DNA of 55,035 nucleotides, the filler included, from Jimgerdemannia flammicorona (taxonomy: Eukaryota): the NCBI GenBank assembly GCA_003990765.1. It is 2 parts of 2 records of this genome, joined end to end, with 100 filler letters (N's around TTAATTAATTAA, not from the genome) between each part and the next. Parts side by side here need not be neighbours in the genome. Positions count along the whole stretch, not along the records: positions 27,597 to 55,035 come from RBNJ01000627.1; 1 more part is not named here. One strand, 5' to 3'. The stretch's first letter is position 1. Every line of letters starts with the position of its first letter. A program made the position numbers and the translations under genes. Under the pieces are notes generated by a model. That model was not told the DNA's origin. It saw only the letters and a program-made list of their open reading frames with translations, and did no database searches. This document shows positions 20,439 to 50,700 of the stretch, piece after piece.

Positions 20439-20699
20439 TCTGTGGTAATGATCACTTACTTGTCTGATTCAATAATTATTTCTACACTTGAGTAGATATC
20501 ATAGCTAGTATTGGATTTATATACTTTGTCTAAGATTTTTATAATAATATAAAATTACTTAATTTTGATTTTTTTTTAGAGATTTCTTTAGAGTTATCTC
20601 TTATTATAGTAATAGTATATAAGGAGAATAGTTCTTTATTCATATTGATCTTCTTGTTAGGATATTTATAAGATATATATATATATCTCTACTAAGTCT

Positions 20700-23227: not shown

Positions 23228-23264
<37 letters not shown>

Positions 23265-23585
23265 TCATAGTTTGCTGATAATTTAAATTCTCAACTCTAC
23301 CCAGTATAATATTTAAAACGGAATTTCGACCATACAAATTTTCATTGGAGATGCTAATCTTATCGTCCCGTCAGGCCGCCCTCAACGCTTTTGAGTCAGG
23401 GTATTTGAATTTCATGAAATAGGCGATTGTCCCTGATGATTATACAACAAGAAACTTTATTTCGTCGACAGCACTACATACTAGCCACATATACGGTTCG
23501 GGGGTTTTGGGTTGGCTGTGGTGCGGATCGTTGACGGTATTCAAATTGCTAAGCTAAGAGCATAAGGGTCATTCACAATCTCATC

Positions 23586-24989
23586 TCAGCCTCGACGATA
23601 TTTTATCCGATACTTATATCCTCCACGTAAGGTCATGCAGGGTACACCTTGTCGGGAAGATTGCGCCAGGCTGTCCCGTAATTGCATCCGTTGATCGAAA
23701 TGGCACAAGTATGGTCGTTTAATTAAATGCAGCGTTATAACATCACCATTTTTAATGTGTTTACCGTAATCGCGGTATACTGTTTGACCAAATATACGTC
23801 GGTAGTTGTCGCGGGTTTGGAAAGCCCATCCATACTTCTGGTTTGCTATTTTATCTGAATTCCTCTCCAACGAACTCAATCTCACAGTTGCCGTAAGTGC
23901 TAATGGATTCAATGACAATGTCCTTTCGCATAGATTGTTGTGAAACCTTCGTCTCAGGGACGGAAAGCCGCGCTGTCTGCATCGAAGTCCCCGATGGAAG
24001 TTCCACAACTTGGGCATCTTCCGAAACGATCACTTTAGAACTGATTTTCGATCCCACTGGAGATGCGCCTTTCCGCGACGTGCGGATGGACCCGTAGGGC
24101 ATACGGTGTCATGCAGGTATTATGAAAAACGTCATGTAGTATGGAGAGGTCTCTGCAAACGTGTCGACTGCCTCCGCGAGGCTTCTGAGTCGATGCAGGC
24201 AGACGAGCGTAATCAAGGTGGCTCATCATTTTGAGCAGCAAGGCGCGCGACGCGTCATCTCCAAGCCGGACTGTACCGCCACATCCCGCAACCATATCAT
24301 TGATGTCATGCAGAATACAACGGCGCTCCGAAGCTGACGGCGCATTATCCCAGACCCAGTCGACGACGCACGCAACAGCTCGTGCTCGGGAGTGGCAAGA
24401 GTTGCTACCTCGATGAGGAGTAGTTCAAGAGCTTCTTCGGAGAGGTCGGTCAGTTCGCCGATGGCGAGTTTGTAAGCGCGGAAAGGGTTGAGAAGCACAT
24501 TATGAAAGTCTTTGTTGGCTTCGCTCCAGGGATGGCGGCAACAGCTTCGCTGTGAAGCGATGAGGCGATACAAAAATCACTGAGGTTGTGTGCGCGTCCC
24601 AATACCATCTTCATGAGCTTGGGGAGGAATAGAGAGTTTGCTGCGCGGTACATTCCTACCGCGATGGAAACATTGACGGTGTTGAAGACTCTAGCACCTT
24701 TTAGGAAACCATAAAAATTGTGTTGAAAAATGCCACGGACGCAACTAAACTGTGTAAAGGAATCGAAATCGGCAACCCTTGAAGCGAGTACAGCACGGCA
24801 CGCGCCTAGTTCGACCCCATCATGATCCTTCCAGATAGAAGCGGTGTCGTCCTTGAGATTAACACCGCTTTTGGATTGTTCGACCGTGTACATAAAAGCA
24901 AGAGTTCTTTTGGGATGACTGAGGTGTGATTTCGACTGTGGAAAGAATCCCTTTCTGTTTGTACTTATATATATCTGAATGGCCGCCAT
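23586..24989 (-). pseudogene. BTB/POZ-BACK-SPRY protein gene, frameshifted
   Basis: BTB-like DGVELGACRAVLASR and MYRAANSLFLPKL. BACK-like LSEEALELLL...TPEHELL. SPRY-like YGKHIKNGDVITLHL and, in a shifted frame, ISINGCNYGTAWRNLPDKVYP. Confidence 0.65.
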
Positions 24990-27496
24990 TTTGGTGGTGA
25001 GCTACACGGCACTATTGAACATATATTCGATGTATTTTGAGATGCCTGCATCACAAGGAAATGGGAGTGCATTATGGAGCGTCAAACCCAGCACCGTATG
25101 GCCCATATACGTCAGCGCTGCAGGTTGATGTATATACATTGTTTGCGTGGGCAGTTCATATAATATAAAACACAAACACTTCGCCAGTTCGTCTTTTCTC
25201 TCCTCTTCAACCGGATGTCTAGGAAATTCGCCACTGTGGTTACATCGCGCTTGGAGAATCTTGCACGACGCACGCGTCATTCCCACCAAAATACCTTAAG
25301 GCACGAAATATTTTACAGCGGCCCTGTTCCAGATATAAGTACGTAACTAAAGCACTCAAATGAGCAAATATGATAATAGACTTTTTCAACGACATTAATA
25401 TCTCGTTTCATGCAACGTGAAACTTGCTTGTGTCAAAGGGGATAGAACTATCAAATTGGTTTGATCTTGATATAAAGATGCGTGTCGCATTCCTCGTGAA
25501 AATCGAGATCTCGACATATAATTAGATTTCAAATGAAGCGATAAGTTGCAACCCGGCAAGCAAATCCAGTAATTGGATAAATAAAGATAGTAGAAATGTA
25601 GCAACAACGCGAGGACCAAGTTGACTATATATAACAATGTAGTGGTTGGATGAAATCTCCACTGACATTATCCAGCTTATGCTTTAGGTTACAGTCCGCC
25701 TACGAAATCGCCTCTTTAACAACGAAACCGGACCAAATGTCAAAGTCAACACCGGACCATAGTTGTTCAAATCGGAATCGGAATCCTCACAAGGCGCGCG
25801 AGTATCAACAATGCGGGAGATGTGAGGACGAATCGAAATCTGTTAGTAGATAGATTTTGAATAAGTAGAGTAATTCATCTCACTTCTCGAGATCGTAAAG
25901 TGATTATGCGCTGCCGATCATATATTTTCTCCATGGAAAAAGATGCAAAAGTGGCTGATTGTGTTGACGTAGATTTTCAGCTCGCGCTAAATGTATCATT
26001 TAGTCGATCATGTGATCCAATATCTGGAGCATAGCGGTGAACACGGTGTTTATCCAGTGTGATTGTGGAGTAAAAAGTTATAGTTGTGTGATTCTTGCAC
26101 GGGTCATCCTTAACCGAAAGCTCAGAAAAGCGGACGCCGCGTTCAGGCGACATTGTCTTTCCCTGGTCAATGAAACAGAGTTCATTTTCGGTGCGGACGA
26201 TTGAAATGTGTAGCGTATCTGCAACGCCACAGAGTAGCCAAAAGCGAAGCTTACGCCATAGAGCACATGCAAAGCGAGACACTGAAACCATAGGATAATG
26301 AAATCCTTTCGGAACGAACATTCGCTAGTCGATATTCGGAATGATAGACAAGATCTATCATACCACGAGAACGCCCTCCAGTATGGTGCGTCTCACGTGA
26401 CAAACAGACATGCGTCAAGTTCGAGACTCAAAGTCGAGGCCCAATTCGAAATCTCTGTTTTGGTTTAAACCAGTTTACTATATGCTACCGCGGAGTCCAA
26501 GGTGTGCAAGTACTGGGGCGGTCAAGGCATCTAGGGATTATGGGAACGAGCGTAAAAGAAAGTAGAGTTTGGCATAGATCCCTTGTCTTAAATGATACGA
26601 CGGATTATATTATATACTAGCAGCGAAAAAAAAAAAAAAAAAAAAAAAACGGCATTTGTCAACCTACCTATTCTATTTTGCGACGAAACCTTCTAGGTCT
26701 TCCACAACCAAGTGATCGGTAAGTACTATTATTATGCAGCTATGTGCGAACATATTTAAGTGAGCCAACATGTTTAGGCTGGGAATCAAGACCGTGTTTA
26801 CTTGAACTCGATGTATCAGAGCTTCCCAGTTTATCCTGGCTACATCAAGTTTCTACTTCTCGTTGGTTCAACACTAGAGGTCCCGTTCATGTACACATCG
26901 TCACGGTGGACAAGAAGATGCATGCCATGCGGTGCAAAAGCCCCTGCGAAAGAGCATGGCGCTCAAAGTGTGCGAGTTCCTCAGGGGATCAATCCATCCA
27001 AGTTGGCGGCAAGACGCGATGAAATTTCGCAGTGTGCATGTTTGTTATGCGAGACTTCCAACTCTTTTGGAATTCAGGGTCTGGTTGAAGGACTTGCCCG
27101 AGTATACGTATTTCCAAGGTTGACCGTGGATCAATAAACAGCCATGACATGGTCTTGTTTGATCATGTATAAATGTAGCCACCTGTAAATATTACGTATT
27201 CGCCTGCTGTACCCAAGAAAGCCGTCTCCGCAGCGGTATTTTCTGCGAGCGTCGAACATTGGATAAATTATGACAGGTCACCGCTGTCTGGCGTGTTTGT
27301 TGTTGCACACAATTACTGCGTGAGGCGGTACATTGGCGGGGCAGTGTGATCGAATTTGACAAATGCACGAGGACCTGGAACAGTCAATGGTCAATTGCGG
27401 GTGATGGGGCTTCGCTTCCATTTGCGAGAGAGAGGCAGCGGGCGTAAAGGGTACTAGCAACGGAGTTCTCAGATTGACCGGTTTGACACCAGGGGA

Positions 27497-27596
27497 NNNN
27501 NNNNNNNNNNNNNNNNNNNNNNNNNNNNNNNNNNNNNNNNTTAATTAATTAANNNNNNNNNNNNNNNNNNNNNNNNNNNNNNNNNNNNNNNNNNNN
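27497..27596. other. Scaffold gap with an artificial TTAATTAATTAA spacer
   Basis: N runs flank a 12-mer that gives stops in all six frames. Confidence 0.95.
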
Positions 27597-27684
27597 TTCT
27601 GAGTCTTGATAGAATTGAAGGAATTTAACTAGGGGGCTATTCTTTTAGTAGCCATCTCTAATGATCTAAGTAGTATATCACAAC

Positions 27685-27995
27685 CTGAGCCAACCTGTGT
27701 ACATATTTAACCTGATCTGGAATTATACATCACCTGTCTTTAACCTGACCTGGAAATATATGTCACCCATCTTTAACCTGACTCAGAATTATACATTCCC
27801 CATCTTTAACTCAACCTGGAATTAAACATCACCCATCTTTAACCTAAGCTGGAAACATATGTCACCCATCTTTAACTTAACCCAGAATTATATATAACCT
27901 GTCTTTAACCCAACCCAAGAAATATATATGACCCAACCTGAGAAATATACATGACCCAACCCTGACTCATATTTAACCCAATGCAGACCTGTCTT
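27685..27995. repeat. Array of ~33-bp repeats (TTTAACCTGACCTGGAA...CACCCATC), resembling subterminal repeats
   Basis: About 7 degenerate units. AACCTGACC is compatible with CpG-decayed AACCCGACC. Confidence 0.75.
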
Positions 27996-28163
27996 TAATC
28001 TGCCTTTAAGCTACAAGGTACTAAAAAATATATATTATACATATAAGATATATATTTAGAATAAACAAATAGAAACATAATTAGGAATTAGAAATCAAAA
28101 TGAAATCAGAAATAAATAAGAAGTAAATCAGGAAAATAAAGAACTTACTGGTGTAAACAGATC

Positions 28164-29512
28164 TTACTCTTCATTGCTATAAACCAACTGATCCTCCTTC
28201 TCTTCATCACTATAAACCAACTGATTCTCCTCCTTCTCATATTCTGAACCATCTTCCTCTATATATTCTGAACTGCTTTCCTCTATATCCTCCTCCTCTA
28301 TATCCTTCTCTGTGCTGACCTCCTTCACACTAACCTCCATTTCATCCTCTGCACTGATCTCTCCATATTCCTCTATGCTGACCTCCCCTGTGCTGACCTC
28401 TCTGTATTCCTCTGTACCAACCTCTCCATATTCCTCCACACTGACCTCCCCCACACCAACCTCTCCATGTTCCTCTAGACTGACTTCTCCCATACTGACC
28501 TCCCCTATGCCAATCTCTCTATATTCCTCTATGCTGACCTCTCTCATGCTGACCTCCCCCACACTGACCTCTCCTACACTGACCTCTCCACTGACCTCTC
28601 TACTGGTGCCAATCTCTCTGCTGGCATCAACCTCTCCCACCTCTCCATCTCCTCTACTACTACCCCCCTCAACAAAATGTACAAGCCTACCATCTATCAG
28701 TTACATATAAAGCATTTTGTCATTCTTCACTGGTACTTATTCAAATATGGCTAGTAGTTTTTCATATTTATCCATGACAACAATTCCATCTAGATAACCT
28801 CACTTGTTCTATGCTTTGGCATTCATCTTGAAGCCAGGGTAGTATGATGAATGTTCCACAATTTTCACACAGTTTTCTATTGCTCTTATGACTTCTTACC
28901 TCAGTTAGTCATCATATACTTTCTTAATGTGTTTATTGGCTACAGCAAAAGTACACCTAATGTCTAATTTATAAGGCCTTTTCTCTGTGAGGTTTGGGGC
29001 ATCCAGGAAATTGGTTTGGCAATGCTTCCAGATGGTACTTGGGCAAACTTGATGGCAAAAATAGCAATTGTAGTAAGATTTGCACTCTGGCCCAGACTTA
29101 GAAGCTGGAGGATATGTATATTTTGAATGTTATTAGGAAAAAAATTTAGACATTAATTTAAAAAGAAAAAAAAAAAAAAACTAACTTTTCAAGCTGCATT
29201 ATTGGAATCTGGTGGAGGACCTTGTGCTTGCAGACTGACAGTGAGCTGGCAGTCAAGCTAAAGATTAGGGAGCTGAGGGTCAGTGAGCTGAGAGTCAGCA
29301 AGCTTGGCAACCTGGGTGTCAGCAAGCTCAGTAGGCTGGGTATCAGCAAGCTTGGCAGGCTGGGTGTCAGCAAGCTTGGCAGACTGAGTGTTGGCAAGCT
29401 GAGCATCTTTAGAGTGCTGAGCTTTGGGACAGTGAGCTGAAGTGCATTGAGCTTGGGGGGGGCTAAGTAAATACTTATTGGCTGGGTGGTCATATTCACA
29501 TTTTTTCAACAT
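28164..29512 (-). pseudogene. Decayed uncharacterised gene (8-aa repeats, Cys-containing middle region, acidic repeat C-terminus)
   Basis: Exon with KLADTQPA repeats, a probable intron ~29108-29185, then ECKSYYNCYFCHQVC continuing into EVS-repeat acidic sequence. Confidence 0.45.
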
Positions 29513-29827
29513 AATGGTAAATTAAGTAAGGTAAAGTAAAGGATGAGGTGAAGTGAAGGATGAGGCAAAAAGAATGAGAGGTGAAAGTAAGCTTTCAATA
29601 TCTTAAATGTTCAAAAGCTATAACATCTTTCAGAAGCTCTTTCAGAATCTCACCAAAATCTCTTTCAGAAGCTCTTTTAGAATCTCTTCAAAATCTCTTT
29701 CAGAATCTCTTCGAAATCTCTTTCGAAACCCATTTCTAAATTGCATATTATTTGCAATCTGAGGAATAAGAGTGAGGGAGGTGGAGGAATATGTGAGGGT
29801 TGTGCAAGAGAAGTGGAATTCAAGAGA

Positions 29828-30021
29828 AGTGGAATGTAGTAAGGAAAGCTCCAGATATAAGTATAAGCATAAGCATAAGTGCAAGCTTTGCTCCACTCAG
29901 CTTATAGCTGATATTATGTAATATTAGCTTATTATCAGCTTATCAGACTGAGTGGAGCAAAGCTTATACTTATACTTATGCTTACACTTACAATCTGGAG
30001 CTTTTCTTACTATATTCCACT
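29828..30021. repeat. Long inverted repeat (hairpin 1)
   Basis: Arms AGTGGAATGTAGTAAGGAAAGCTCCAGAT...AAGCTTTGCTCCACTCAG versus CTGAGTGGAGCAAAGCTT...ATCTGGAGCTTTTCTTACTATATTCCACT. Confidence 0.85.
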
Positions 30022-30184: not shown

Positions 30185-30950
30185 TATAATAGAATGAATG
30201 AGCAAACAGATGAGATGCAACAAATGATCACATGACCCAGTGATGACATCATCATACAATTGAGCATGACATACAAATGAATGATGTGAAATGATGTGAA
30301 AAATGATATCTAGCTTATCTCTGACAATTGGTGCCACAGCAACTATTATCACAGCAGCTGATCATTGCCTAGTAATTGAGGTCCTGATCACAAAGTTGTT
30401 TTTACCAAAAACCACCTAACAAAGGTTATGATCACAAACCTCACTATAGTTACCAAATTAGTCACTCATACATAGTCAGAAATCACAGACCAACTTGTAT
30501 AAATACCCCCTAGTTTCCATTTGAAATAAAGCAGTTTTAGTTCAGTCCTTGATACAAAAATCAAGTCCCCCCACACACACACATTCTTCTGAGTTTAAGT
30601 AATGACATCTAAGTGACTCTAGTGTTTCTGACTAAACTCTAGAAGCCTAGCTAACTTCTGCCAGAACTGAGACCAGTATATAAATCTCCAAAGACTTAAG
30701 TAAACCTATTGAACCTAAATTCCAAGGCGAATTCAGTCTGTGTACAGCAAAGAACAAGACCCTTGAAAGATAGGGCAAATCAGAAAAAGTCCTTTGAAAT
30801 AAAAGGCACTGCTACTACAACTACTTATAAGTAAGTGCTTCCTCAAACTGAAGGCTTCTTGGTATATATTGTGTACTAAGTCCCTAAGTAATAGTCTTAC
30901 TTCTCTAATATCCAAAGGATAAGAGAGGGGTAGAAGTGAGAGTCATTACA
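30185..30950 (+). repeat. 5' LTR of Gypsy B
   Basis: Direct repeat of 45098-45853. TATAAATA at 30498, AATAAA at ~30525, ends TTACA. Confidence 0.93.
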
Positions 30951-30953
30951 ACT

Positions 30954-30965: not shown

Positions 30966-31189
30966 ATTACTGAGCCAAGAAGGCACTAAGAACATACTCC
31001 TGAAGTTGGAACAAGACCAACCTTGGACAGGAGTAACCCCCAGAACTAACAGTAGATTCCCTAGGATCAAACCCCCAAACCAGAGCCAGAGAAGCCCTTG
31101 CCTAGTGCTCTGAATGAGTCAATTTAAATCAAATCTGGATTCAATTCATCACATGATGGTTTGATTCAAATCTCAAATCCAAAGCCATC

Positions 31190-31440
31190 CGAATCAACTC
31201 AGATTAATCTGAATCACCCCATCTGAATCACCCCATCCAAATCACCTATCTAAACTACCCCAATCTGAATTACTCAATCTGAATCACTCAATCTGAATCA
31301 CTCAATTCAAATCACTCAATCCAAATTACTCAATCTGAATCCTCCAATTCGATTCCTCCAATTCAAATCCTCCAATTTGAATCCTTTAATCTGAATCCTT
31401 ATCTGAATCCTTCAACTGAATCCTCTAATCCAAATCCTCC
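31190..31440. repeat. hAT left subterminal repeats (AATCTGAATCACTC units)
   Basis: Tandem ~13-14-bp units; related GATC/GATT motifs occur at 37540-37680. Confidence 0.85.
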
Positions 31441-31442
31441 AC

Positions 31443-34146
31443 ATGACTCATATGCTGGACATGTCTACAACACAATACATACACATGCATACACAATACA
31501 CATACATGCATACACATGTATATGCAAACATGCAAACACACATGTTGACAGATCAGTCTTCAACAGTTCACAGTACTGATGATACTTCAAGTCAAACATC
31601 CCTAATAGTTCCACACCTTCTACACAATCCTTGCTCTGAAATCTGGCAACATTGTGCTAAGATAGGAGATGATGTTGTTTGTAATTATTGCAGGTAAAAA
31701 ATTAAGATGCACCTATTGACACTTTTTGTTTGTTTTGACATACATATGATATTGTTTCATCTACCCCTATAAACTGCACCAGCCAGAAGTTCAAAATCCT
31801 TAGGGGTATGACTTCGAACATAAATCGACATATAAAAGACAAGTACTCTGACAAAATCAAAAAGAATACAGAGACAAATAAAATTGACATCCAAGCTGTA
31901 GTGGGTACGTTTATCTGATTGCCCAACCATTTCTATACCAACAATGCCATTTAATCAAAAATATTTAGCCATACTCTTGACAGAATTTCGAAATCAGCTC
32001 ATTCGCTGGATTGTGTGCACAGACCAGCCATTCACAACTATCAAGAGTGATCAATTGCATAGCATCTTTGGCCTCCTCAAGCATGATTTATATTTGCCAA
32101 GTGCTGATACTATTCACAAAGATGTCCTGGAGGCCTATAGGAAGGAGCACAACAATCTCTGCCAGATACTTCAGGTAAAATAAGGGCAGCACCATGACCT
32201 TTGCAAGCTGAATTATATAAAGAGCTCACCAATTTAACCTCACATTCAATAAGCAGAATTTGGCAGGCAAAATTTTATTTACAATCAACACATGGACATC
32301 CCCCAATGTAATTTCATTTCTGGGTATTACTGGTCATTAGATTGACCTCAATTGGCAGCTTAAATCTCTCACCCTTGACTTTGTCAAAATTGCTGGCCCT
32401 CATTCTGGAGACAACATTGCAGATACTTTTATTAGTTGTATCTGGGAGCTTGGAATCACAACCAAGGTAAAAAAGGGTGGCTTGCCATCAGGTTGGCATT
32501 TTGAGGGAGATCCTAAAACAAACCAGATTTTATTGGTTATTTATTTTTGCATAAATTCACTGACTGAATATTTCAAGTACAGATTTTGGCCATTATGACA
32601 GACAATGTCACAAACAACTCAACATTTTTCAAAGTTTTAATAGCCAGCCTCAAACAGGAAAATGTGGCCTTCAGTGTAGAAAGCTGCCATGTGCGATGCC
32701 AGGCCCATGTACTGAACCTTGCTATTCAGGACTATCTTATACATGTAGATAAAACATCCGAGAGAGGAGGGACCCTGAGTATAATTTTCAAGCTATGCAA
32801 CCTGGTTGTGTCAGTCCGATCATCCCCACAATGATGAGACAAATTTGCTGTGCAATGTAGGGCAATCAGTTTAGCCCCAAAAGAACTTATATTAGACATC
32901 TGTATGCATTGGAACTCAACATTTGCAATGATCCAGCACATGCTGGAGTTTGCTGTGGTATGCATCCTTTTTTTCTTTGGTTGGCTGAAGTAACTTGTTT
33001 TGGATGATTGAAGATTTATTTTAAAAAAAAAAAACAAAAAAAGCCAATAGATTCAACAGTGGCTGCCAACAAGAAAATACAGGCTGAGGCTCTAGGTGAA
33101 AGTAAGTGGGACATACTTAGGAATATTATCAGAGTTTTGGAAGTAAGTAGTGATTGCTCTGGCTCCACACTCATTTTGTCAGCCTCCACACTCGTTTTGT
33201 CTGCCTCCACACAATGCAACACCTCACCACATATAACTGCCAGTGTTTTGATGATTGTACAAAGGATATAGTCAAACAAATGACCCCAACAATAAGCTTG
33301 GCAATACCAGTATACAATCTTCTGATTGACCAGCTAGAGGCCAAGCTCGAGGACAGACTAGAGGGTTGCAGTGATTTACAGTTGAGCCCAGATCAGAGAG
33401 ATGCCATGGAGGTTGTTCTTAGTAAGCTCAGAAAGTACTACTCCCAAACAGATACTGCCATATACTCAATCAGTACAGGTATGTCGATGTCAGTGTATGG
33501 CCATTGTCCCTTCCAAAACAGAGAAACCCCTACAAAAACTCACTCTCTCCTCTTCTTCAAACAGTGCTGGACCATGCTTAAAGCTACAATACCATAAAGA
33601 TCAGGGCTGGGAGCAGCACTTCATTAAGAGAACCAAGTAGGCTGTAATCAAAGTATACTGGAAAAACTATGTGCCACTGCAAGATTCCAGCCAAAGTCTG
33701 GATGAATATGCCGAGAGATCTCTTCTGTCCCATATTTACTTCAGCAGAAAGAGGAAGAGAGAGCTGTCAGTGGAAGAGCTGCTATCAATAGACAAACTTA
33801 CCATTTACCTTGCCAGCAACCACATGATCCTACTGGAGGGCATGGAGGTGCTCAACTAGTGGAAGGTGAGTTGTCAGATGAGTGTTGTCAGGTGGGCATT
33901 GGGCCAATTTAATCCACCAATCTAACCACCACTCTACCCACCAAGGCATGCAGCTGCATCAAATGGACTTCTCCAGCCTATGTGGATATGGCTCAGAACT
34001 ACCTGGCGATTCCTGCCTCCAGTGCTCCTGTTGAGTGGGTGTTCTCAGGTGGGGTGGACCTCATTGCCCCAAAGAGGTGTGCGCTGAACACTGAGACAAT
34101 CTGGGCATGTATATGTCTGAAGTCTTAGTGGGGCTCAGGCTGCTAA
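31443..34146 (+). pseudogene. hAT transposase, multi-exon, with a BED finger
   Basis: IWQH...CNYC, DQPFTTI, TWTS, HSGDNIA, TDNVTNN, RCQAHVLNL, WNSTFAM and C-terminal YLAIPASSAPVE.VFS. GT-AG introns and several stops. Confidence 0.95.
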
Positions 34147-34284
34147 AATTTGGCAAGTCCTAGGGGTTCGCAGATAAGTTGGTTGGCCTTGTGAAATATT
34201 TAATATCTTTCAAAAATAATAAAAAAGGTAAAAAACCCTGAGGACTTGGCCTGGAGTTTGCGGCCCAAGTGGGCAGTAGTTGGT

Positions 34285-35335
34285 GGGGTTGGTGGTAGTA
34301 GTGGAGGGAGCACACAATATTTGTGGCCCTTCGCCAGCAGCAAGGGGCAGCCCCAAGCTGTCAGTGCCCAGGTTGGTGGGTGGGTCAGCAGAGGGAGCAT
34401 GCAAAATTTGCAGCCCTCCACCAGCAGTAAGGGGCAGCCCCAAGCCACAAGTGTCCCAGTCAGGGGGGTTGGTGGAGAGAGTACACAAAACTTGTGGCCC
34501 TCTACCAGCAGTGAGGGGCAGCCCCAAGCTATCAGTGCCCAGATCAGTGGGCAGGATCAGTAGGCAGAGTTGGTGGGTGTGGGGTCAGCAGAGGGAGCAT
34601 GCAAAATTTGTGGCCCTCTACCAGCAGCAAGGGGCAGCCCCAAGCCACAAGTATCCAGGATGGGCAGGGCAGGCAGAGGGAGTGCGCAAAATTTGCAGCC
34701 CTCTGCCAGCAGTGAGGGGCAGCCCCAAGCAGTCATTGCCCAGATCAGTGAGCAGGGTCAGTCGGCAGAGTTGATGGGCATGGAGTTGGTGAGAGAGCAT
34801 GCAAAATTTGTGGCCCTCTGCCAGCAGCAAGGGGCAGCCCCAAGCTGCAAGTATCCGGGATGGTTGGGCAGGTGGAGGGAGCATACAAAATTTGCAGCCC
34901 TCCACCAGCAGTATAGGGGCAGCCCCAAGCCACCAAGGAGTCCAGGGCGGAGGGTACTTCTGGCAGTCAGAGAGTGCTTCTGGTAGTCAGAGGGTGCTTC
35001 TGGCAGTTGGAGGGCATTTCTGGTGGTCAGAGGGTGCTTCTGGCAGTTGGAGGGCATTTCTGGCGGTCAGAGGGTGCTTCTGGCAGTCAAAGCCCACTAC
35101 CGGTTTGGGCCCTATTGCTGGTTCAGGTTCCATGGGCACCCTGGCCAGTAGCACCCTGCTTAATGGCTAAGCTAGTGCTACAGAAGAGGTACCCGGCCCA
35201 ACCCCCCACATAAGACTACCCAACCCGCACAAAATGACTGCCCAACCTGAACAAAATGACTGCCTAACCCTCATGAAAGACTGCCTATCCCTCATGAAAG
35301 ATTGCCTAACCCTCACAAAAACTGCTTCACCTATC
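34285..35335. repeat. Three adjacent tandem arrays inside the hAT element
   Basis: Units of ~85-120 bp (CCAGCAGCAAGGGGCAGCCCCAAGC) at 34285-34935, ~20-bp units (AGAGGGTGCTTCTGGCAGT) at 34950-35090, and ~22-bp units (AAAGACTGCCTAACCCTC) at 35210-35335. Confidence 0.9.
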
Positions 35336-35339
35336 AGTC

Positions 35340-37407
35340 CTAGGCCTTGATGAGCCTATCATCTATTGTGAGTGTGATAACTGTTGTGTCTGAGCTCTCC
35401 TCAAAGGCAACAGTACCATGGTGGTCATGTGGTTGAAAGAGGATGGCCGTGTTGGCTGTAAACGGGACCCCAAAACTATAGGTGAGGTCATACCAGACTC
35501 CTCCACTATCCTCCCAGGTTGGGCCCTTCCTTTCTGGAACATAAAACATTACCGGGGTGACATTGTTGTCTGTGTGTGTAGGCAGAGAAACATTGTACCT
35601 GACATATTCTGATGTGATATGAGTGTACAGTTGGGTGAACCCTTGGCCTAGGACCTCATACTGCCAGGCTGTGCTGGTGGATGCCTGCCCTTGGTCCAGC
35701 CCTGGGAGCCCCGGCTTGGAAATCTACCAAAACAGATGGCAACCAGTCAGTCCTTTTTGCATACAGGGGGGCAGAAACCCCCCAGACTGCAGAAACCCCC
35801 TGGGCCACAGAATCCCCCCAGGCTGCAGTACTTCAAAAAAGCAGAGCTCCTCACCTCATACTGCATGCTAAATTGCACCAAGAATGTACATACAGCCACA
35901 CTGAGATCACCACCAAGCTGGCCTGCCATATGCTCTACCAATCTGCTCAAAAAACCCCAGATCATAGCCACCATCTGCACAGGCCGTGTCATGCTTGTAT
36001 GCAGTTTGCTCTTTGATGGCACTTCTAAAGTTCCAGTAGGGGTATAGAATCTAATGTATCCCTGGAATTGTATCAAAAAGAGTATGTTGGCGAAGAGTGT
36101 GATTTATCTGGAGAGGAGAAAAAAAAAAAAGAGAGATGAGTGCAGGGGATTTCGGAACTCCGGAACCCACCATTTGCCAGTGTTGAAGTATACCCAATTC
36201 CCATCCAAACTCCCCCTCCTTGCTTTTTTCACCCCTTCTTTCCTGCCACCTGGTATTTGATGTAATTCTTGCAAATCTTATTGATGTGGCAGCAAAGCTC
36301 ATCACCATAGAGGTTCCTTACCACTATCGCAACCACCTCTCCATGTTCATTAATAAAGATATAGTTCTCTCCATCATTGGTTACTCCTGCTGGCCAATGG
36401 ACCTCTTGGTCGAGAACAATTGACTCTGATTCAAATATAAATCCCCAAGTCTTGATGATGATGCTGATACTGCTCATGCTGAATATCTTGCCCTCAAATT
36501 TCTCTATCTGATCAGATGCCAGATGTGGTTGAACTCAGGTAACTTTGAACTCTCCTTTCCAATAGAACTGAGCCCTGATCTGAGAGACTGAGATAAGTGT
36601 ATGGATGGGTTGCATGCAGATGGGTTGCATGCAGACAGGTTGTATGTGGGTGAGTTGTATGCAGGCAGGTTGCATATGGGTGTGGGTGTTTTTTAGGGGG
36701 AGACTACATAAAAAATGAAATTAAATAAAACATAGAGATGGGTATTTCAGAAAAAGAGCATGAGTGAGTGAGTGAGTGAGCTGTATGCTAATGAGTTGCA
36801 CACTGACAAGTTGCACAAGTTGCACAAGATTGCTCATGAAGGCTTGCTTCTGTTCCTTTTGAGACCTCCACCACATGATGCATTGACTCAACAGCTCAGC
36901 CACCAAAGGCATGCCCTGCAACATCCTCCAACCTTTCTTCATCTTGACCAGATGTTGCAAATAAAGTCAGCAGATCTTGCCATAGAGCTGTGGACCCTAA
37001 GAAGAGCACGAGGTAAATTGGGTCATGCTGGGGGAATTTAAACAAGTAAAAAGTAGCAGCAGAAAAGAGCAACCAACATCTACTACCAGCTGCTCCAAAA
37101 AGGCTGCCACATACATAGCTGTGAGGTCTGTGAATTCTGAGGTCTGAAGGGCTGCTGTGAGTTATTACCAGAATTCACCCTCATCTCTGTCATCACCATT
37201 ACCATCACCATTGCCATCACTACTGCCATCACCTCTTTGGATCTCGATGAGTAGTTTATATGCTGCTCATATGAGAAAGAATCTAATATTGTCAGCAGAG
37301 AGTGTGTTTCCACCTCAAATACTCCCTCTTTTGATGATCATTACAGGGTGAAAAATGAGTAGACTGGACCAACATATGAATTAAGGGCTGCTGTTTTGTT
37401 TGTTCAT
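35340..37407 (-). pseudogene. hAT cargo gene, putative TET/JBP-like 2OG-Fe(II) dioxygenase (5 exons, ~500 codons)
   Basis: Exons 37407-37087, 36996-36808, 36579-36178, 36061-35855 and 35723-35340 join in phase 0; intron 3 has a non-canonical GC donor. The last exon reads YNVSLPTHTDNN...SGGVWYDL...AILFQPHDHHGT. Confidence 0.62.
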
Positions 37408-37717
37408 GATGTGGCAGGAAAGAACAAAGAAAAAGAATAAAGAAAAGAGAGGGAACAAAGAAAAGGGTGATGTCACCAAAGTGTGGCAGGAAAAAAAAAA
37501 TGAGAGTGAAATAAACAAAAGAAAGGGTGATGTCACCAAAGATTTCAATCTGGATGGATCAATCCAGATGGATCAATCCAGATCAATCTGGATCAATCTG
37601 GATCAGATCACGAGACTAATCTAAGTTGATTTGAATCCATCACATGATGAACCTGAATCGAATCTCATCTAGATCAACTCCATTCATTCGGAGTACTACC
37701 CTTGCCATTAGGACCAG

Positions 37718-40700
37718 ATGGTACTAGGAAACCACAGATCCAGGGACCCATCAGCTTATAATTGACCAAGCTTACAAGAATCTATACCAGGCCTTTAGGA
37801 CTTACCACCCAGGACTTAGAAATATAGTCAGCCACCATACGTTCTACAAACTTCTCTATAAATATATTAGAACCACTAGGACCCCAGAATCTACTGCTGC
37901 AGCCACTCAGGATTTTTTAGATTATATCTCACCCCCTGCTGCAAGAGAAGCAGCTGCCGAGTAGATTACCTCTGACAGATATCATCATACCCACCAAGAC
38001 CTCACTCTACTACAGGTTAGTTGTATACTATACCTCTGCCATAACCTGGTATGAGAATGAGCAAGCAGGCCACCCACCCCCTACTGCTGAACAAGAAGCA
38101 GGCCCATCTACTTAGCCAGAAACTGATATTTGCTTTGAAGGACCTAGTCAGTACAAAGATGCACTATCTCATCAGGAAAGGAAGTCAGACAAAGACTCTA
38201 CAGGTTACCAGTCTGACAATAGCCAACTAGAAATAGTAGGCCTAGGAATTTACCAAGGAATTACAGATTAAGAAAATCAGACTCCAGAACCAACCCAGCC
38301 ACCTATATAGAGATTTGGGTTACCCTTCCTCACAGGACTCTTTGATCTGATATCTGGGAATCAAGTAACCCCAAGTCATATAGCACTACAACCTCATCAG
38401 GAAGATCAATCTTCAGGAGAATCTACCCCAATAGGCCTACCACCAATAGTCAATACAATGATAGATGTCAATATTACAGCACTGACTACCTAGCTAGCTG
38501 CACTAGCAGGAATAGTAGAATAGATTGCTGAATAGAACAAAACAACCAAAACTTTGCAAATCCCAACATTCAGTGGAAAAAACAGTGATATTGAAAACTT
38601 CATCAATATAGTTGATATAGGTTACCAAGCAAACTAATAGAATAACAACCAAGTGCCTATAGGAATGCTCACTAATAATCAGAACAATACTCTTCAACAG
38701 TTGTTTACCACATCAGCAGTACAAGTGGAAACAGTAGCCACATTCTTCACTAAAACAGCAGCTGAATTCTGGCAAATCTTGGAATAGCACCCAGTAACCT
38801 GAAAAAACCACCCTCAAGTCAATAGACAAGCACCTGCCAACAATAGACCAGGTTGGGATGACTATGAAGCAGGCCCAGGACTCAAGGCCCTGCTACTGAC
38901 CAAATTTCAAAATGCAGTCTATATATAAGAAACTTGGAACAAACTGTCTCAGATGAAGTTCTACAAGAATGGTGAAGAGGATCTTGAGATCTTTGCCACC
39001 AGAATGGATACCTACCTCAAAACCATTGGACTTACCTACCGGGAGAACAATTAGGCCATCAATAGTACCAGAGCCAACCATCTCTTTGCAGCTCTACCAG
39101 ACTGGCTCACCCAGAAGATCAAGGAACAAGGTCTTCTCTAAGGATGCCCCCACTATTCATAGTGCTTTGCCCAAGTACAAAGAAGAGCCTGTGAAATCCT
39201 TGCTGCACAAGCCTCATGAAATCAGGAACATAAGAAGGATAACCAAGATAGGAGGAATCCTACTAGGAGAAATGATCAAAGGAATGATCAAAGGAACCAG
39301 CAAAACCCCAGAGGACTCAGACCTCCAACTGAGGATGAAAAAAAGCAGCTCTGCAAAAAGAGATTGTGCTTCATCTACAAGAAGGCAGGACACATCTCAT
39401 TCAAATGCTCTGAGAAGAGAAACAGATCAGGCAAACCCAGTAACCAGAACATTACTATTATTAGAGAAGGCCCAGAAAAGAAGAACTCTGAGAATATCAT
39501 CAAAGCAGAAGATATGGTACAAGGCTACTATCCCCACTAAGGCCCACCCAACTGATACTGGATATGACCTCTACAGTAGCCAAGACCTCACTATCTCACT
39601 AAGTACCAATGCTACAGTGCAAATAGAGATTGCAATACAAGCTCCCAAAGATATATATATCTACCTTATTGAGCGAAGCAGCTTAGCCAAAGAGTTCAAC
39701 ATTGGGCTAGGAGGAGGAGTAGTTGACCAAGGATATACTGGTGAAATCCATATTATCTTGTGAAATTTTGGAGACACATCATTTGAAGTCAAAGCAGGCC
39801 AAAGAATCGCCTAAGCAATCATTGAAGAAATCCATTAAGATCTCACCATTGAAGAAGTCCCCAAGTTCTCTCAGACAGACTATGGCAAGAAAGGGTTTGG
39901 ATCAACCAACAAACCTTCTAGTCAAAAGGTCACAATTATAAAGAAAGATGATGAAAACTGGTACAAGAGAATTGCAAATGGTTATATACCATGTGGATGA
40001 TACCCTCATTCTATTCAAATGTACTACATGGAACATGTTAATAAATGCCATATATGCCTCTTCAAGGTTTTTAAAATCAACTCTGAAAGAAACCAAGCCC
40101 AAAAGACTGAGGAACTCAAACAAGACCACTCTCCTTGTGAAGGATGGGGAGAAACTGACTTCAAGGAGACTAATAGCAATTGGGACAATAATGAAGAGGA
40201 AGAGCTCAACACCATCAAGAAGGAGGACAGTTGTATCAAGTTCACAGACCAAGTTCACAGACAAAATGTCAATGTCTTACTTGATAGCAGTGCTACTGGA
40301 AACTATATCAGCACCAAGACTGCCAAGAAGATTGGAGCCTGAAGCAAACCAGCTACCGAAAAAAGGATTATTATCTTTAGTGATGGCAAGACTGTACCAC
40401 TGACTAAGATCTGTGAAGACCTCTTGCTTAAGATTGGCAAATATCAAGAGAAGTTGGACTTCAGCATTGTAGACCTCTCAGGACAAGATATTATCCTAGG
40501 AAAAGCCTGGTTGACTCAGCACAACCCAGATATTAACTAGAGGACCAATGAGGTTAACCTGATCTATGAAGGAAGAAAGATCACCCTGACACCCCAGGAA
40601 GGTACCAACTATCAAGGAATTGAAATCATCTCTGCCATTCAAATGAAGAGACTCTCTCAAAAAGAGGGAAACACCTACTTCATCTGCACAGTACAAGAAG

Positions 40701-43600
40701 TCACTGAAGCTACAAGTAGCCCAATTCCAACAGAAGCTCAAGAACTATTTGAAGAGTTCCAAGATATATTCCAGGACCCTCAAGGACTTCTACCTAAACA
40801 CCAAATCTAATATGAAATTGATCTTATTTCAGGATCTGAACCTCCTTATAAGAGTATCTATCAATTGACCCAACCTGAACTTAAGACCCTCAAGGATAAG
40901 TTGACCAAACTACTGGCCCAAGGATATATTGAATCTAGCCACTCTCCATTTGGAGCCCCCATCCTATTTGTCAAGAAAAAGGATGGCTCTCTGCAAATAT
41001 ATATTGACTACAGAGCCCTTAACAAAATTACTATCAAGAACCAGTATGTCTTACCCAGGATTGATGAGTTGTTACACCAAATCTTCAAGGCCAAGATCTT
41101 TTCCCTACTAGACTTGCAAAATGGCTACCACTAGATTCTTATTGATGAGAAGGACATTGAAAAGACAGCTTTCCAAATACAGTTTGGATACTACTAGTTC
41201 CGAGTTATGCCTTTTGGTTTAACCAATGCTCCAGTAATATTCCAGTATCTGATGAATGACATCTTTGGACCACTCCTCAACATTTGTATTTTTGTATATA
41301 TTGATGATATACTAATCTACAGTGAAACAGTAGAGTTATACTACACCCACCTCAGATAGGTACTGACCCTTCTGCGAGAACACCAGCTCTATGCTAAGAT
41401 GAGCAAGTATAAGTTCTATCAAGACCAGATTGAGTACCTAGGACATATCATATCTGCTGAAAGTATCAATGTGGACTCCCAAAAGATATCAGCCCTCAAG
41501 GATATTTCCATCCCTACTACCCTCAAGCTACTCCAGCACTTTCTGGGTATTGTCAGTTATTACCAAAGATTTATTCAAGGATACTCTGCTATTGTAGCCC
41601 TACTGACCAGCCTGGCCTACAAAGGAGTAAACATCAAGACTGAATGGACTCCTGAATGTACCCAGACTATGGACCATCTCAAGAGACTCCTTACTAAGGC
41701 CCCAGTGCTAATTGCACCTGACCCTACTAGGCCATTCACTCTGACCACAGATGCCTCTGATATTGCCATTGAGGCAGTGCTCAGCCAAGAAGACCACCTA
41801 GTAGCCTACCTTTTCCAAAAGCTCAAGCTAGCTGAGATCTGGTATACTATCTATAAGAAGGAACTCCTGGCCATTGTTACTGCTCTCCAGGAATGGTGCC
41901 AGTTCCTTCTAGGATAACTATTTATGATCTACACTGATCACCATGCTCTGTAGTATATTCACATATAGCCCATACTGACCCACAGACAAGCCCACTGAAT
42001 GGAAATTATTGCCAACTTTGATATGGAAATCAAGTATATCCCAGGCAAAACCAACTGTGTGGCTGATGGTTTTTCCAGATATATGGGAGATGAACTTGTC
42101 TTCATGGTCAAGATAATTGGAGACCTTACCCAAATGATCAAGAATGGCTATCAGCAAGACAGCCCTCTGATGAAATTTCTTCAATTCTGCCAAAATCCAG
42201 AGGCCAAGGTCCCAGAACTCATGAGGCAAATGTCCAAGAGATTCTCTTACTGTGATGGACTTATCTACAGGGACCATGACAGAGTAGTTATACCCAATAA
42301 TAATACTCTGTGGCTCAAGATCATGCAGGAACTCCATGATACTCCTGCAGCAGGACACTTCAGTTTTGAGAAGACCTATAACCTCCTCTCAAGAGAGTTT
42401 TACTAGCCAAAGATGACCAAGGACATCAAAGACTTTGTGGCCTTATGTGAGATGTGCCAAAGATTCAAGAGTAGTAACAAGCTACCAGCAGGACTTCTGC
42501 AACCTCTGCCAATCCCAAGTCATAACTAGGATCAGTTTGCAATAGATTTCATTGTCCAACTCCCTAAGACCAAGGTTGGATGGGATGCCATTGTGGTATT
42601 CATAGACTGCTTAAGCAAACAAGCCCATTTTGCACCCACTAAGACTACCGCTACTATACCAGAAATTGCCAAGATTTTCCTCAACCAAGTATTCAAACTA
42701 CATAACATGCCTAGCACCATTGTATCTGACTGGGATGCTAAGTTCAAAAGTAACTTCTGGAAGGTATTTTTCTCTCTCTATGGAACCAAGCTGAAGTTCT
42801 CTACTGCCTACCACCCTCAGACTGACAGTCAAACCAAGTGAATCAATAGGACCCTCAAACAGATGCTCAGCATCTTCTACTGCTACAAGCAGAATGATTG
42901 GGACAAGTACCTAGCCCATGCTGAGTTTGCCTACAACAACAGTTAGCAAATCTCTACAAAGAAGACTCCATTCTTTCTGAACCACAGTCAATATCCAAGG
43001 ACCCTGAGTACCACTGTAAAATCAGCAGTCCCAGTAGCCCAAGATCTGGCTGAGACCATTTCTGATCTTACTTGAATGACAAGAGATACTCTCATAGAAG
43101 CACAGGACTACCAGACCAAGTATGCAAACTTGAAGTGAAGAAAAGTCTCTTATAATATTAATGACATAGTCATGCTTAGAACAGACTATCTCCACCCAGA
43201 TACCCTGGCACAATAACTGGTCAAGAAACTCTATACTAGAAGAATTGGACCATATAAGATTGTGGAAAAAGTCAGCAAAGTCAACTATAAGTTGCAACTT
43301 CTCCACAACATCTAAGTACACCCAGTATTCCATATCAGCCAATTGGTGGAATACTATGAGAACACATTTTCTGAGTATACAGTTCCACCTCCACTTCCAA
43401 TTAGGATCAATAATCAAAAGAAATTTGAAATTGAGGAAGTACTTGACTATAAGATCCACAAATATTCCAAAATAGTCAAGTGGATTTTTCTCATCAAGTG
43501 GAAGGGTTACCCCACCCATGATGCTATCTGGGAAAAAGAAGAAGCTCTAGAGAATGCACATGAAGTTCTCCAGGACTACATGGAAACACTCACCCCCTAG
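37718..43600 (+). pseudogene. Gypsy B gag-pol (stops, frameshifts)
   Basis: Knuckle [40 protein letters not shown] and YIDD, RH TTDASD, IN HDTPAAGH and YHPQTD, chromodomain FEIEEVLD...LIKWKGY...DAIWE. The start is approximate. Confidence 0.93.
39510..39910 (+). pseudogene. dUTPase domain of Gypsy B, between gag and PR
   Basis: Motifs TGYDLYS, RSSLA, GGVVDQGYTGEI and GKKGFGST. Confidence 0.93.
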
Positions 43601-45097: not shown

Positions 45098-45853
45098 TAT
45101 AATAGAATGAACAAGCAAATAGATAAGATGTGATGAGTGATCATATGACCTTGCAATGACCTCATCATACAATTGAGCATGACATACAAATGAATGATAT
45201 GAAACAATGTGAAAAACAATATCCAGCTTATCCCTGACAATTGGTGCTGCAGCAACTGTTACCACCGCAGCTGATCATTATCTAGTAATTGAGGTCCTGA
45301 TCACAAAGTTGTTTTTACCAAAAACCATCTGATAAAGGTCATAATCACAAACCTCACTATAGTTAACTCATACTTAGTTAGAAATCATGGACCAACTTGT
45401 ATAAATACCCCCCAGTTTCCATCCAAAATAAAGCAGTTTTAGTTCAGTCCTTAATATAAGAATTAAGTCCCCCCACACACACACATTCTCCTGAGTCTTA
45501 GTAATGACACCTAAGTAACTCTAGTATTTCTGACTAAACTCCAGAAGCCTAGCTAACTTCTGCCAGAACTGAGCCTGATATATAAATTCCCAAAGACTTA
45601 AGTAAACCCATTGAATCTGAATTCCAAGGTGAATTTAGTCTGTGTACAGCAAAGAACAAGACCCTTGAAAGATAGGGAAAACCAGAAAAAGACCTTTAAA
45701 ACAAAAGGTACTGCTGCTACAATTACATATAAGCAAGTACTTTCTCAAACTGAAGGCTTCTTGGTATATATTGTATACTAAGTCCCTAAGTAATAGTCTT
45801 ACTTCTCTAATTATCCAAAGGATAAGAGAGGGGTAGAAGTGAGAGTTACTACA
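45098..45853 (+). repeat. 3' LTR of Gypsy B
   Basis: Follows the PPT (45085-45097), ends CTACA and is followed by the TSD. Confidence 0.93.
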
Positions 45854-45858
45854 ATAAG

Positions 45859-47739: not shown

Positions 47740-50700
47740 TTTTTTTTTTTTTTTTTTTTTTTTATAGTTACTTGGACTTCTCTTTATTATCACAATTTAT
47801 AAATAATAATACAATTTCACCCCACTCCTCACCCAATACTCCTTGGATCTCCTTCCCTACTCTCCATCTCTCCTCAATGGAGAATAACCCAGCCACCCAC
47901 CACCTGAACCCTCTCTCCACTTTTCTAATAGATATACATACAACACCAAACTCTGTCAGCCCCACCCACCTGGTCCCACCCCTCTTCACTAGCTATTCAA
48001 AATGTCAAGTATTAACCATTCCTATCATACCACTCTAGCCCTAACCTCAACCTACTGGCCCTCCTCAAAAACATATAGCCAATATCCAGCCAGCCTAACC
48101 CAAATTGCCAAAACCCATCCCAAGGTTTACCACTCATTCCCAACCCTGCCCACTAATCTTTGGCAGAGGTCCCCCCATTGCCTCTCTTCCCCCCCCACTA
48201 GGGCCTACAGCTCTAACAAGTTTGCAATATAGTGCCAAAACTCCCCCAGGACCTCATACTCACTAAGTCAATGTTCAGGCATTTGTACCACTCCACCCTC
48301 TTGGCCAACATTCAAACACTCCTCACACTCAAAAGTACCATCTGCCACCAAGTGCCCAGACTGATAGTTCAGCATCACATTTCGCCTTAGAAACCTCCAC
48401 CATACTACCCAGAACTTGGGGGGAAGCCAATGCATCACCTGCTTGCTCTAAGGCCAAAGACCATTCCAGTCTCACTCCTCACCAATCCCTACTCTCTGCC
48501 ATGCTTCAGGCCATAGGTCTCCCCCAAGGCCCCACATATAATCCATTCTATTGCCAAGCAGGAAATCCTCCACCAATACACCTCTCAGCAGTAGCCTGTC
48601 CCATCTCCACATCTGTGGGCCCCAGTCCTCCTCTCTTTCATTGCCCTGCCACTAAAGTCTAATTCTCCTTGCACCATCTACCACTCTCCATCAAAAACCT
48701 TTATACCTCATCCTCCTGCTCCCATCCAAGGCCACCATTGCAAGCAGGTCACCAGTCACTCTACAAGGGGAATACTAGACTTCTCACACCCTCTGCATGA
48801 GTAGTACCTACTCCTGGCCCCTCAACTCGCTCACTCTCTTTAGCCACTATGCTCTCAGGCAATGAAGGCATTTGGTAAAGTCTACCAAGCCTAGCCTGCC
48901 TCTGTCAACAGGCAGAGTCAGAACCTCCCATCCAATCTGACTTTGCCACTCAGCCCAGATCTATGATCTTGCTATCTTCAGAAGTTGTCTGACTACTCAC
49001 ACCAGGAAGTCCAGATGATACCCCACATACTATAGCTTCAGCAGCCAATATACATTTAGCACCATCACCCTTCCTGCCAAGGATATATACCGACCACCCC
49101 ACCTCAAAAGCACATTTCCCCATACTAGGAGCCACTGTTTCTACTATATATAGGGTAGGAGAGACCTATATACCAAAAGGTAGATCTCTAAATAATAGAC
49201 TGGTTCCCCTGCTGGCACTATCATTCCAATTACATTGCTGCTAACTATTCCACTGCTGAGCACCAGAGTCTCATATTTGTGCCAGTTGAGTTTGATATCT
49301 GAGCTCCTCTCATATCATTCAATCGACCTTCATAATTCCTCCACATCCTCTAATGAATCCAGTCCAACTACTATATCATCTGCAAAAGTCCCCACTTTCC
49401 AGTTAATTCTCAAGATATCCAAATCTCCAATTCAATGCCTGATTCTGTCCAATAGGGGCCCCAAGGAAAGGGCATATAAGATGAGTAACAAAGGGTCTCC
49501 TTGCAGCACCCTATGACCTAGTGGGAAAGTTACACCTCAGTACCCATTCACCACCAATGCTGCTTGACTGTTCTCTAAGAGACTGATTAATGACCTCCTG
49601 AACTCTGGGGGAACTCCCACCCATTTCAGCACCTCTTCCAGCCAGACTCTCCTCACCCTGTCATATGCCTTCTCCTGATCCAGAAACACTAACTGGCCAT
49701 TAACCCCAGCTGCCTGAGTTCCTTCAATTACCCCATGAACCCAGGCAGTTCTATCTCAAATCAACTGTCTACAACAAATCCCCTCTGCTCCACCCCTAGT
49801 ATCTGCTGAGTGATCCCCTGCAGTCTAGTTACCAAGATCTTTGTCACTGGCTTGCAGTCTATGTCCAGAAGCATGATCAGTCATCAGTTCTTCCAATCTT
49901 CTCTTCTCCCCTTATCCTTATAGAGCAAAGAGACCAGCCCTAGATGCTGGCCCCCAATCCATGATTCAGATTGAAGGACCTCATCACTTATCACCATTAT
50001 CTCCTCCAATACCACCTCTATCCCAGCCATCTTCTTCCAAAAATCCCAGAGAAGCCCAGCCTCTCCTAGAGCTATCTCTTTACTTGTTGAAGCCAAGACC
50101 TTGCATACTTCCTCCCCTCTCACTGAATCTCTCAGTATCCCCAGGCCCATAGCTGGGTCTGGATACCAATCCTCCAAATACCATTCAATGTTCAGGGCAT
50201 CCTCACCCCCTTCTTCCTCACTCCATAGATTCCCCCAGTGAGTCCTTAGCAATCCCAAAATCTTAAAAGTCCCTGCCACCATCTCCCCATCCTCATCTAG
50301 AATCCCCTCCCACTGCTGTCTGGTTCTCCAAGCCTGAAGTAACTGTGAAAGAAATCTGGTGGGCCTCTCCCCCTCCTTCAACCCCTGCCACTACAACCTT
50401 GCTACCATCCCCTTCAACTGAGCCTCTTCTTCCATTCATAGCACATCCTTTAACTCCTCAACTTCCTATTGAATCTACAGAATTTGTCAATTGGCTGCCC
50501 CCCAATCCTCCAGTGACCCTGCCCATCTCCCCAGAAGTGCCACCAATCTCTGTGAAGCCCATTGCACTCACTGCCACTGCTGAGCACTTCTTCCTTTCCC
50601 TGCCTCTCTCCAGTACCTCTGAGCACTTGATTTCAGCTGCTGCCAGCAATTTCCAATTGCCAATCCCTGCTCCCACCACCTACTAATCTTCTCAATAACT

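Follow-up and report, generated by a model that had tools for sequence, protein, structure and literature searches.

A dead hAT transposon of Jimgerdemannia flammicorona with a second gene for a putative, divergent TET/JBP-like dioxygenase

Can a DNA transposon carry its own counter to the methylation that silences it? The question is raised by a 55,035-nt stretch of DNA from Jimgerdemannia flammicorona (NCBI GenBank assembly GCA_003990765.1), hereafter the window, which consists of two parts of two records joined by 100 filler letters, with positions 27,597 to 55,035 coming from RBNJ01000627.1. Within it lies a hAT element that holds, next to its transposase, a second gene that a sequence-only reading had taken for a TET/JBP-like dioxygenase dependent on 2-oxoglutarate (2OG) and Fe(II). 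From our analysis, we favor the view that this is a dead hAT element with a four-exon cargo gene encoding a divergent TET/JBP-like dioxygenase of ~370 residues, nearest to the PE type of such proteins, that would have had an anti-silencing role when intact. We give this reading a probability of roughly 0.6.

The borders of the element can be read directly from the DNA. An 8-bp target-site duplication (TSD), CCCTTGCC, is present in identical copies on each side, and the element between the copies starts with TAGTGCTC and ends with GAGTACTA. hAT elements start their terminal inverted repeats (TIRs) with YARNG. The inverted ends of the window element are imperfect and extend over ~75 nt, and the terminal 110 nt aligned as inverted repeats score 83, compared with a mean of 38.5 +/- 5.3 and a maximum of 56 in 300 shuffles; the TIRs and TSD that the sequence-only reading had placed around the gene are thus borne out. 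The parts of the element are as follows.

31095-31102: left 8-bp TSD, CCCTTGCC
31103-37698, plus strand: whole hAT element, 6596 bp, from the TSD plus inverted ends
31103-31180, plus strand: 5′ imperfect TIR, starting TAGTG
31206-31439: 5′ 14-nt subterminal repeats
31545-34128, plus strand: spliced hAT transposase remnants with stops (double stop at ~32832-32837)
33913-34128, plus strand: Dimer_Tnp_hAT domain (PF05699) at the transposase C-terminus, E 1.5e-8
34301-35315: G+C-rich tandem arrays, ~1 kb, between the convergent genes
34301-34930: tandem array of 84/200-bp units
34950-35089: tandem array of 20/40-bp units
35197-35315: tandem array of 21-22-bp units
37545-37605: 3′ 10/14-nt subterminal repeats
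37622-37698, minus strand: 3′ imperfect TIR, ending in GAGTACTA
37699-37706: right 8-bp TSD, CCCTTGCC

The PF05699 match scores 34.7 bits, above the cut-off of 21.4, and this domain, the 8-bp TSD and the TIRs together are those of the hAT superfamily. We conclude that the element is a hAT DNA transposon of the autonomous type, in a copy that is now dead. The 7-bp TSD of the hAT7 lineage does not fit this element, whose TSD has 8 bp and whose ends become asymmetric if 7 bp are assumed. No second copy of the element was found within the window, and a search of the window for an empty insertion site matched only the long terminal repeat (LTR) pair of the surrounding retrotransposon. Two ~70-nt direct repeats (GTGGCAGGAAA...GGGTGATGTCACCAAAG) lie at ~37408-37540, upstream of the cargo gene and near the 3′ subterminal repeats.

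The cargo gene lies inside the hAT termini on the minus strand, is spliced and runs convergent to the transposase, as first described; it stands downstream of the transposase gene. Its extent had to be revised. Five exons and ~500 codons had been proposed, but the homology-backed model, obtained by tblastn of relatives together with three-frame reading, has four exons and ~370 codons, running from about 36912 to 35313.

36913-37540, minus strand: upstream stretch without homology support
36838-36912, minus strand: tentative exon 1 (MPLVAELL...WW...FM), from a by-eye match to the N-terminus of the relative P0003; donor site approximate
~36169-36585, minus strand: exon 2, E 1e-9 to exon 2 of the relative L001
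35855-36060, minus strand: exon 3, from tblastn and three-frame reading
35313-35723, minus strand: exon 4, homologous to P0001-P0004, with a frame that runs past the stop at 35340
35576-35568, minus strand: HTD in exon 4
35531-35529, minus strand: R in exon 4
35504-35499, minus strand: GG in exon 4
35423-35412, minus strand: HHGT in exon 4
35357-35355, minus strand: R of DDRL in exon 4

As a coding segment, 36913-37407 was rejected because it lacks homology and the frame opened by its ATG at 37407 closes after 8 codons. Judging by the P0003 N-terminus, the probable start of exon 1 is the ATG at 36912; BLASTP with exon 1 from this ATG gave no support (E 0.77, elsewhere). Exon 2 holds an NYIFIN...VVAIVVRN strand and a K/G-rich ...GGGVWMGIGYT segment (~36240-36180). 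The latter is the basic/GxxxMGxG segment that the sequence-only reading had in its exon 3, and it is confirmed. The last exon has no stop codons over 35343-35723, and its HTD, GG and HHGT stand in the frame and at the coordinates originally given. Past 35340, the window reads A-stop-D-stop-stop-VKQF, which aligns with AWDWWVEQF of P0001.

A phmmer search with the last exon against 1.84 billion representatives matched four proteins.

P0001: 136 aa, 81% identity, E 3.9e-63
P0002: 134 aa, 51% identity, E 1.9e-27
P0003: 374 aa, full length, 31% identity, E 3.6e-14
P0004: 128 aa, 35% identity, E 1e-8

Because the last exon matches these four proteins among so many representatives, the cargo is a genuine gene and no chance open reading frame (ORF). 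A fifth protein, P0005, was found from P0003 (E 8.8e-59; 2 matches among 7051 candidates), and of 63 pattern matches in a metagenome scan, two were relatives, the loci L001 (E 7e-69) and L002 (E 4e-64). Of 8000 candidates scored with the profile of alignment A1, P0001 and P0003 alone were matches, none of 80 candidates was a longer relative when the search started from the last exon, and the viral contigs scanned gave 22 pattern matches with no relative among them. The P0004 cluster, to which L001 and L002 correspond, has 28 members over many contigs, and one ESM Atlas neighbour cluster is from Mucoromycota. Judged by these searches, the family is rare, unannotated and fungal.

Both L001 (1-3666) and L002 (1-2870) are AT-rich soil-metagenome contigs with a four-exon cargo relative, which is intact in L001 and carries two stops in L002. 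The GT-AG introns of L001, after ..ASG and before ..LPRLDGG, occupy the same two places as those of the window gene. The two contigs are 99% identical, with 28 differences in 2715 aligned bases, 17 of them G>A or C>T; all eight exonic differences alter the protein, and two of these make the L002 stops. We read the AT-rich relatives as a decaying multi-copy set. No transposase was seen on either contig, both of which are short, and the L001 downstream ORFs at 2320-2601 and 2661-2945 match no Pfam family.

The sequence-only reading had seen in the HTD and the HHGT of the window the iron-binding residues of a 2OG-Fe(II) dioxygenase, and these residues are kept among the relatives. In alignment A1, H283, R298, G307, H335 and G336 are invariant in all six rows and D285 is present in five, so that the family reads H-[VT]-D and the H-x-D ... 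H triad of 2OG-Fe(II) dioxygenases is found beyond the window. Within the P0004 cluster, 11 of 13 sequences spanning the site have HVD, and HG is kept in 14 of 15; the exceptions (D>N, H>Y and G>D) are decay-type changes.

The ESM Atlas points the same way. There, the last exon has as a neighbour a cluster in which 72% of members carry PF20515 (score 0.91, 175 shared features). The neighbours of P0003 include a cluster whose members carry PF20515 in 15% of cases (0.96, 209 features) and a viral one in which 16% carry PF12851 (0.91). We treat these scores as a lead and not as proof because the recognition values are low.

The closest likeness is to one of the three types of transposon-borne TET/JBP proteins described by Kojima 2025 (PMC12730594). 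There, the PE type has diverged to the point that its HHpred match to CMD1 reaches no better than E 1.4, whereas its AlphaFold-DB models resemble CMD1, NgTET and CcTET; the stated hallmark of the type is H-x-E instead of H-x-D, and its carriers are fungal DNA transposons of Agaricus/Laccaria/Gymnopus and Pezizales. We compared the cargo by hand, without a formal alignment, with the domain sequences in Table S1 of that paper. The cargo family and the PE type share an NYIF[VI].....E[IV]V..V.RN strand, ..SAG.. after a basic stretch, H-x-acid followed by an Arg 13-14 residues on, and a late ..RL. They also share an ungapped GG-x-F-[FY]..DYG.......N...V.[WF].P...HGTT block with the same 26-residue spacing from GG to HG, and by hand count 13 of the 32 positions of the GG-to-HGTT block are identical between the PE type and L001 exon 4. 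Both are transposon-borne and both are missed by ordinary hidden Markov models (HMMs). The cargo family differs from the PE type in having H-x-D rather than H-x-E and a shorter loop after the second His. The PU-type sequences are less similar to the cargo than the PE type, and PU-type membership was rejected because the motifs GG.MW.IGWRK and R.G.S.Q are absent from the cargo. From these likenesses, we consider it plausible that the cargo is a divergent Fe(II) dioxygenase of TET/JBP ancestry, nearest to the PE type, with a presumed double-stranded beta-helix fold.

In its overall layout, the full-length relative resembles a solved TET homologue. NgTET1 has ~320 aa, with ~50 residues from HxD to the distal His and ~40 after it, and P0003 is similar in this respect, with HxD at 283-285, the His at 335 and the end at 374. 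In PDB searches, however, CcTET, NgTET, CMD1 and human TET2 have no detectable sequence similarity to the cargo family, and the G331/D337 pattern of CcTET, as quoted in PMC12730594, is not seen after the cargo H-x-D.

Several results weigh against a TET/JBP-like enzyme carried by the hAT element. The sequence-only reading had looked to Tet_JBP (PF12851) and the Tet-like families; the H-x-D and H-G residues, the Atlas neighbours and the by-eye PE-type likeness speak for that identity, but Pfam searches with the window exons, with P0001-P0005 and with the exons of L001 gave no match even at a limit of E 1-10, neither to PF12851 or PF20515 nor to any other family. PHROGs gave no relevant family, and PDB sequence searches with A1, A3 and P0003 at E up to 10 gave nothing relevant, the sole row being an irrelevant dimethyl sulfoxide (DMSO)-reductase subunit at E 0.15. 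AlphaFold2 models from 6 and 9 aligned rows have a mean predicted local distance difference test (pLDDT) score of 36.5 and 35.4 and are unusable. With recognition values of 2129 and 2142, the Atlas queries fall short of a level that 91 of 100 known-family proteins attain. The likeness to the PE type is a by-eye comparison without an E-value, and with H-x-D the cargo lacks the H-x-E hallmark of that type. The Arg of the PU-type R-x-G-x-S-x-Q is absent from the cargo family, where the R-x-G-x-S Arg position, aligned by eye, is H, N, T or V; 8-9 residues further on, five of six lineages have an Arg (DDRL / CHRT), which L001 lacks. Finally, cargo and hAT are found together in one copy only, and this copy decayed as its neighbours did.

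Such results could also mean that the cargo encodes an accessory protein of the transposon, an orphan that differs in fold and function and whose TET-like pattern is coincidental or convergent. The complete lack of HMM and PDB sequence matches, the unusable models, the low Atlas values and the lack of a conserved canonical 2OG-binding Arg are all what one would expect of such a protein. Chance or convergence sits less well with two Atlas queries that reach the same clan at 0.91-0.96 with 175-209 shared features, with conserved residues of the metal-binding kind, or with a PE-type motif order and spacing that, by hand comparison, is kept in the N-terminal strand as well as in the C-terminal core, and so we regard an orphan protein as unlikely. 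The gene might instead be TET-like and yet not belong to the hAT element, as a piece of another element (Helitron or KDZ/EnSpm) or a captured host segment in one hAT copy. Both genes are known together from a single copy, ~1.2 kb of tandem arrays separates them, and Helitrons and KDZ/EnSpm elements are known carriers of PE-type genes. A scan for internal pairs of a 12-nt TIR and a 2-9-bp TSD, which recovered the true ends and is blind to Helitrons, gave 3 weak pairs compared with 0-7 in 20 shuffles, that is, no pair above chance around the cargo. Moreover, the ratio of observed to expected (o/e) CpG is alike in the cargo (0.12) and the transposase part (0.13), and PMC12730594 documents capture of TET genes by many transposon superfamilies, hAT included. 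A piece of another element or a one-off capture thus seems improbable to us.

CMD1 uses vitamin C instead of 2OG, and a TET/JBP-like enzyme of this kind, or a thymine or 6-methyladenine (6mA) oxidase, is an alternative in which the family would be right and the chemistry different. The occupation of the PU-type Arg position by H, N, T or V is in its favor, as is the naming of CMD1 among the nearest solved structures to the PE and PU types in PMC12730594, where other activities are left possible; the nearby Arg present in five of six lineages could, however, take over 2OG binding, and we consider a different chemistry quite unlikely. A further and rather unlikely idea is that the cargo represents a fourth type of TET/JBP-like enzyme. 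It would be PE-like with H-x-D, would lack the canonical 2OG-binding Arg and would have an invariant Arg 13 residues after H-x-D. Such a type would occur across distant fungi (basidiomycete-like relatives, and an AT-rich soil fungus with Mucoromycota Atlas neighbours), would have been captured by an 8-bp-TSD hAT element, and may act by a chemistry other than 2OG-dependent 5-methylcytosine (5mC) oxidation.

For the favored reading, a PE-like dioxygenase carried as hAT cargo, we infer both the substrate and the anti-silencing role of the putative enzyme. In an intact master hAT element, transposase and dioxygenase would both be expressed, each from one of the two convergent genes. The cargo enzyme would bind iron through H-x-D...H and would oxidise 5mC or another modified DNA base. 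This oxidation would blunt or delay silencing by CpG methylation and the decay by C-to-T deamination that ensues, a decay visible throughout the window.

In the window itself, both genes are dead. The cargo copy has six premature stops and one frame change, in agreement with the stops noted at the outset, and three of the stops are former Trp codons.

36537-36535, minus strand: stop (TGA)
36231-36229, minus strand: stop (TGA)
36053-36051, minus strand: stop (TAG)
near 35974, minus strand: frame change, in exon 3
35342-35340, minus strand: stop, former Trp codon
35336-35334, minus strand: stop, former Trp codon
35333-35331, minus strand: stop, former Trp codon

The CpG o/e of the cargo and of the transposase part is on the level of the neighbouring transposable elements (TEs); therefore, any protection in this copy lapsed long ago. 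A self-encoded anti-silencing role has also been proposed for hAT7 elements (PMC12730594); this copy did not escape decay.

Soil-metagenome contigs from three runs of three studies (X1, X2 and X3), placed on the cargo at a likeness of at least 80%, differ from the window at some of these sites. The contigs, which are too short to link the cargo with a hAT transposase, cover 30, 30 and 28 of 30 bins of the cargo stretch (43, 396 and 22 contigs, respectively), and they may be copies, strains or related species. Nearly all their differences from the window are transitions (225 of 245 in X1, 212 of 223 in X2 and 135 of 142 in X3). A window A/T opposite a contig G/C is about twice as frequent as the reverse in X2 (138 vs 74) and X3 (95 vs 40), whereas the two directions are balanced in X1 (108 vs 117). 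All 11 contigs that cover position 36053 have a T there, which abolishes the exon 3 TAG, and one X2 contig has two additional letters behind 35974, at the site of the frame change. These three soil-metagenome contig runs, each with a small word share, were the only sequencing runs that matched the cargo, and no RNA run was among them.

How new is a hAT element with such a gene? The sequence-only reading knew of no link between TET/JBP genes and hAT elements; that claim fails, because 20 TET-bearing hAT7 families from six Puccinia species have already been published, with an anti-silencing role proposed there too (PMC12730594). The hAT7 families and the window element are alike in being hAT elements with a TET/JBP-type second gene between their ends. 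They differ in that hAT7 elements have a 7-bp TSD and start with CAACGG/CAGCGA, whereas the window element has an 8-bp TSD and starts with TAGTG, and in that the hAT7 cargo is of the PU type (GG.MW.IGWRK, PH.D, R.G.S.Q) and the window cargo is PE-like. In hAT7-1_PCor, hAT7-2_PCor and hAT7-1_PHor, the three hAT7 families with a published gene order, the TET gene is upstream of the transposase in the same orientation, as opposed to downstream and convergent in the window. The available part of the paper does not report PE-type genes on hAT elements. Thus, a hAT element carrying a TET-like gene is already described in fungi and is no new kind; what is new here is the combination of a canonical 8-bp-TSD hAT element with a PE-like cargo.

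A wider group of elements follows a similar logic. Iyer et al. in 2014 are said to have described TET/JBP genes with the Kyakuja-Dileera-Zisupton (KDZ) and Plavaka elements, which would likewise link a fungal DNA transposon to a TET/JBP gene; the purpose proposed for it, to counter methylation, is the same. Those elements reportedly differ from the window element in their transposase superfamily and in their TET types (AG/PU).

The hAT element sits in a strongly CpG-depleted region, with a CpG o/e of 0.18 over the whole window and 0.01-0.22 in its TE parts. It is inserted in a Ty3/Gypsy retrotransposon, ~150 bp past the 5′ LTR.

30306-30951 and 45219-45854: Ty3/Gypsy LTR pair, 89% identical to each other
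37707-43600: Ty3/Gypsy host-element body to the right of the hAT element
38 to 43.6 kb: Ty3/Gypsy gag, dUTPase, reverse transcriptase (RT), RNase H, integrase and chromodomain

The dUTPase of this host element (PF00692, E 2.4e-15) lies in an ORF at 38957-39760 and its C-terminal chromodomain (PF00385) in an ORF at 43316-43597. A second retrotransposon remnant, at 9769-14704 on the minus strand, has a zinc knuckle and fragments of RT and integrase as well as a dUTPase (PF00692, E 1.5e-24, 11926-12561), and Gypsy elements with a dUTPase seem to be common in the source genome. Near-normal CpG is found only at window positions 20001-30000 (o/e 0.75 and 0.67), which may be unmethylated, unique or genic DNA; the ORFs of at least 75 aa at 20001-30000 match no Pfam family except for a low-complexity pentapeptide-like match at 28479-28751. 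G+C-rich blocks (0.47-0.56) with a GC skew of -0.34 to -0.57 lie at 1-9000 and 48000-53000 and contain long ORFs on both strands, whose sole Pfam match is an RT fragment at 1828-2130.

Only rarely does a genomic parasite encode a direct counter to the epigenetic silencing by its host, as transposons with a demethylase-like enzyme of their own do. To such transposons, the locus would add a carrier lineage, the canonical hAT elements, and a divergent subtype of the enzyme that escapes standard domain models, which suggests that fungal genomes hold more cargo of this kind than has been counted. Since the copy is a fossil, its value lies not in any local function but in cataloguing such genes and in guiding the search for intact relatives.

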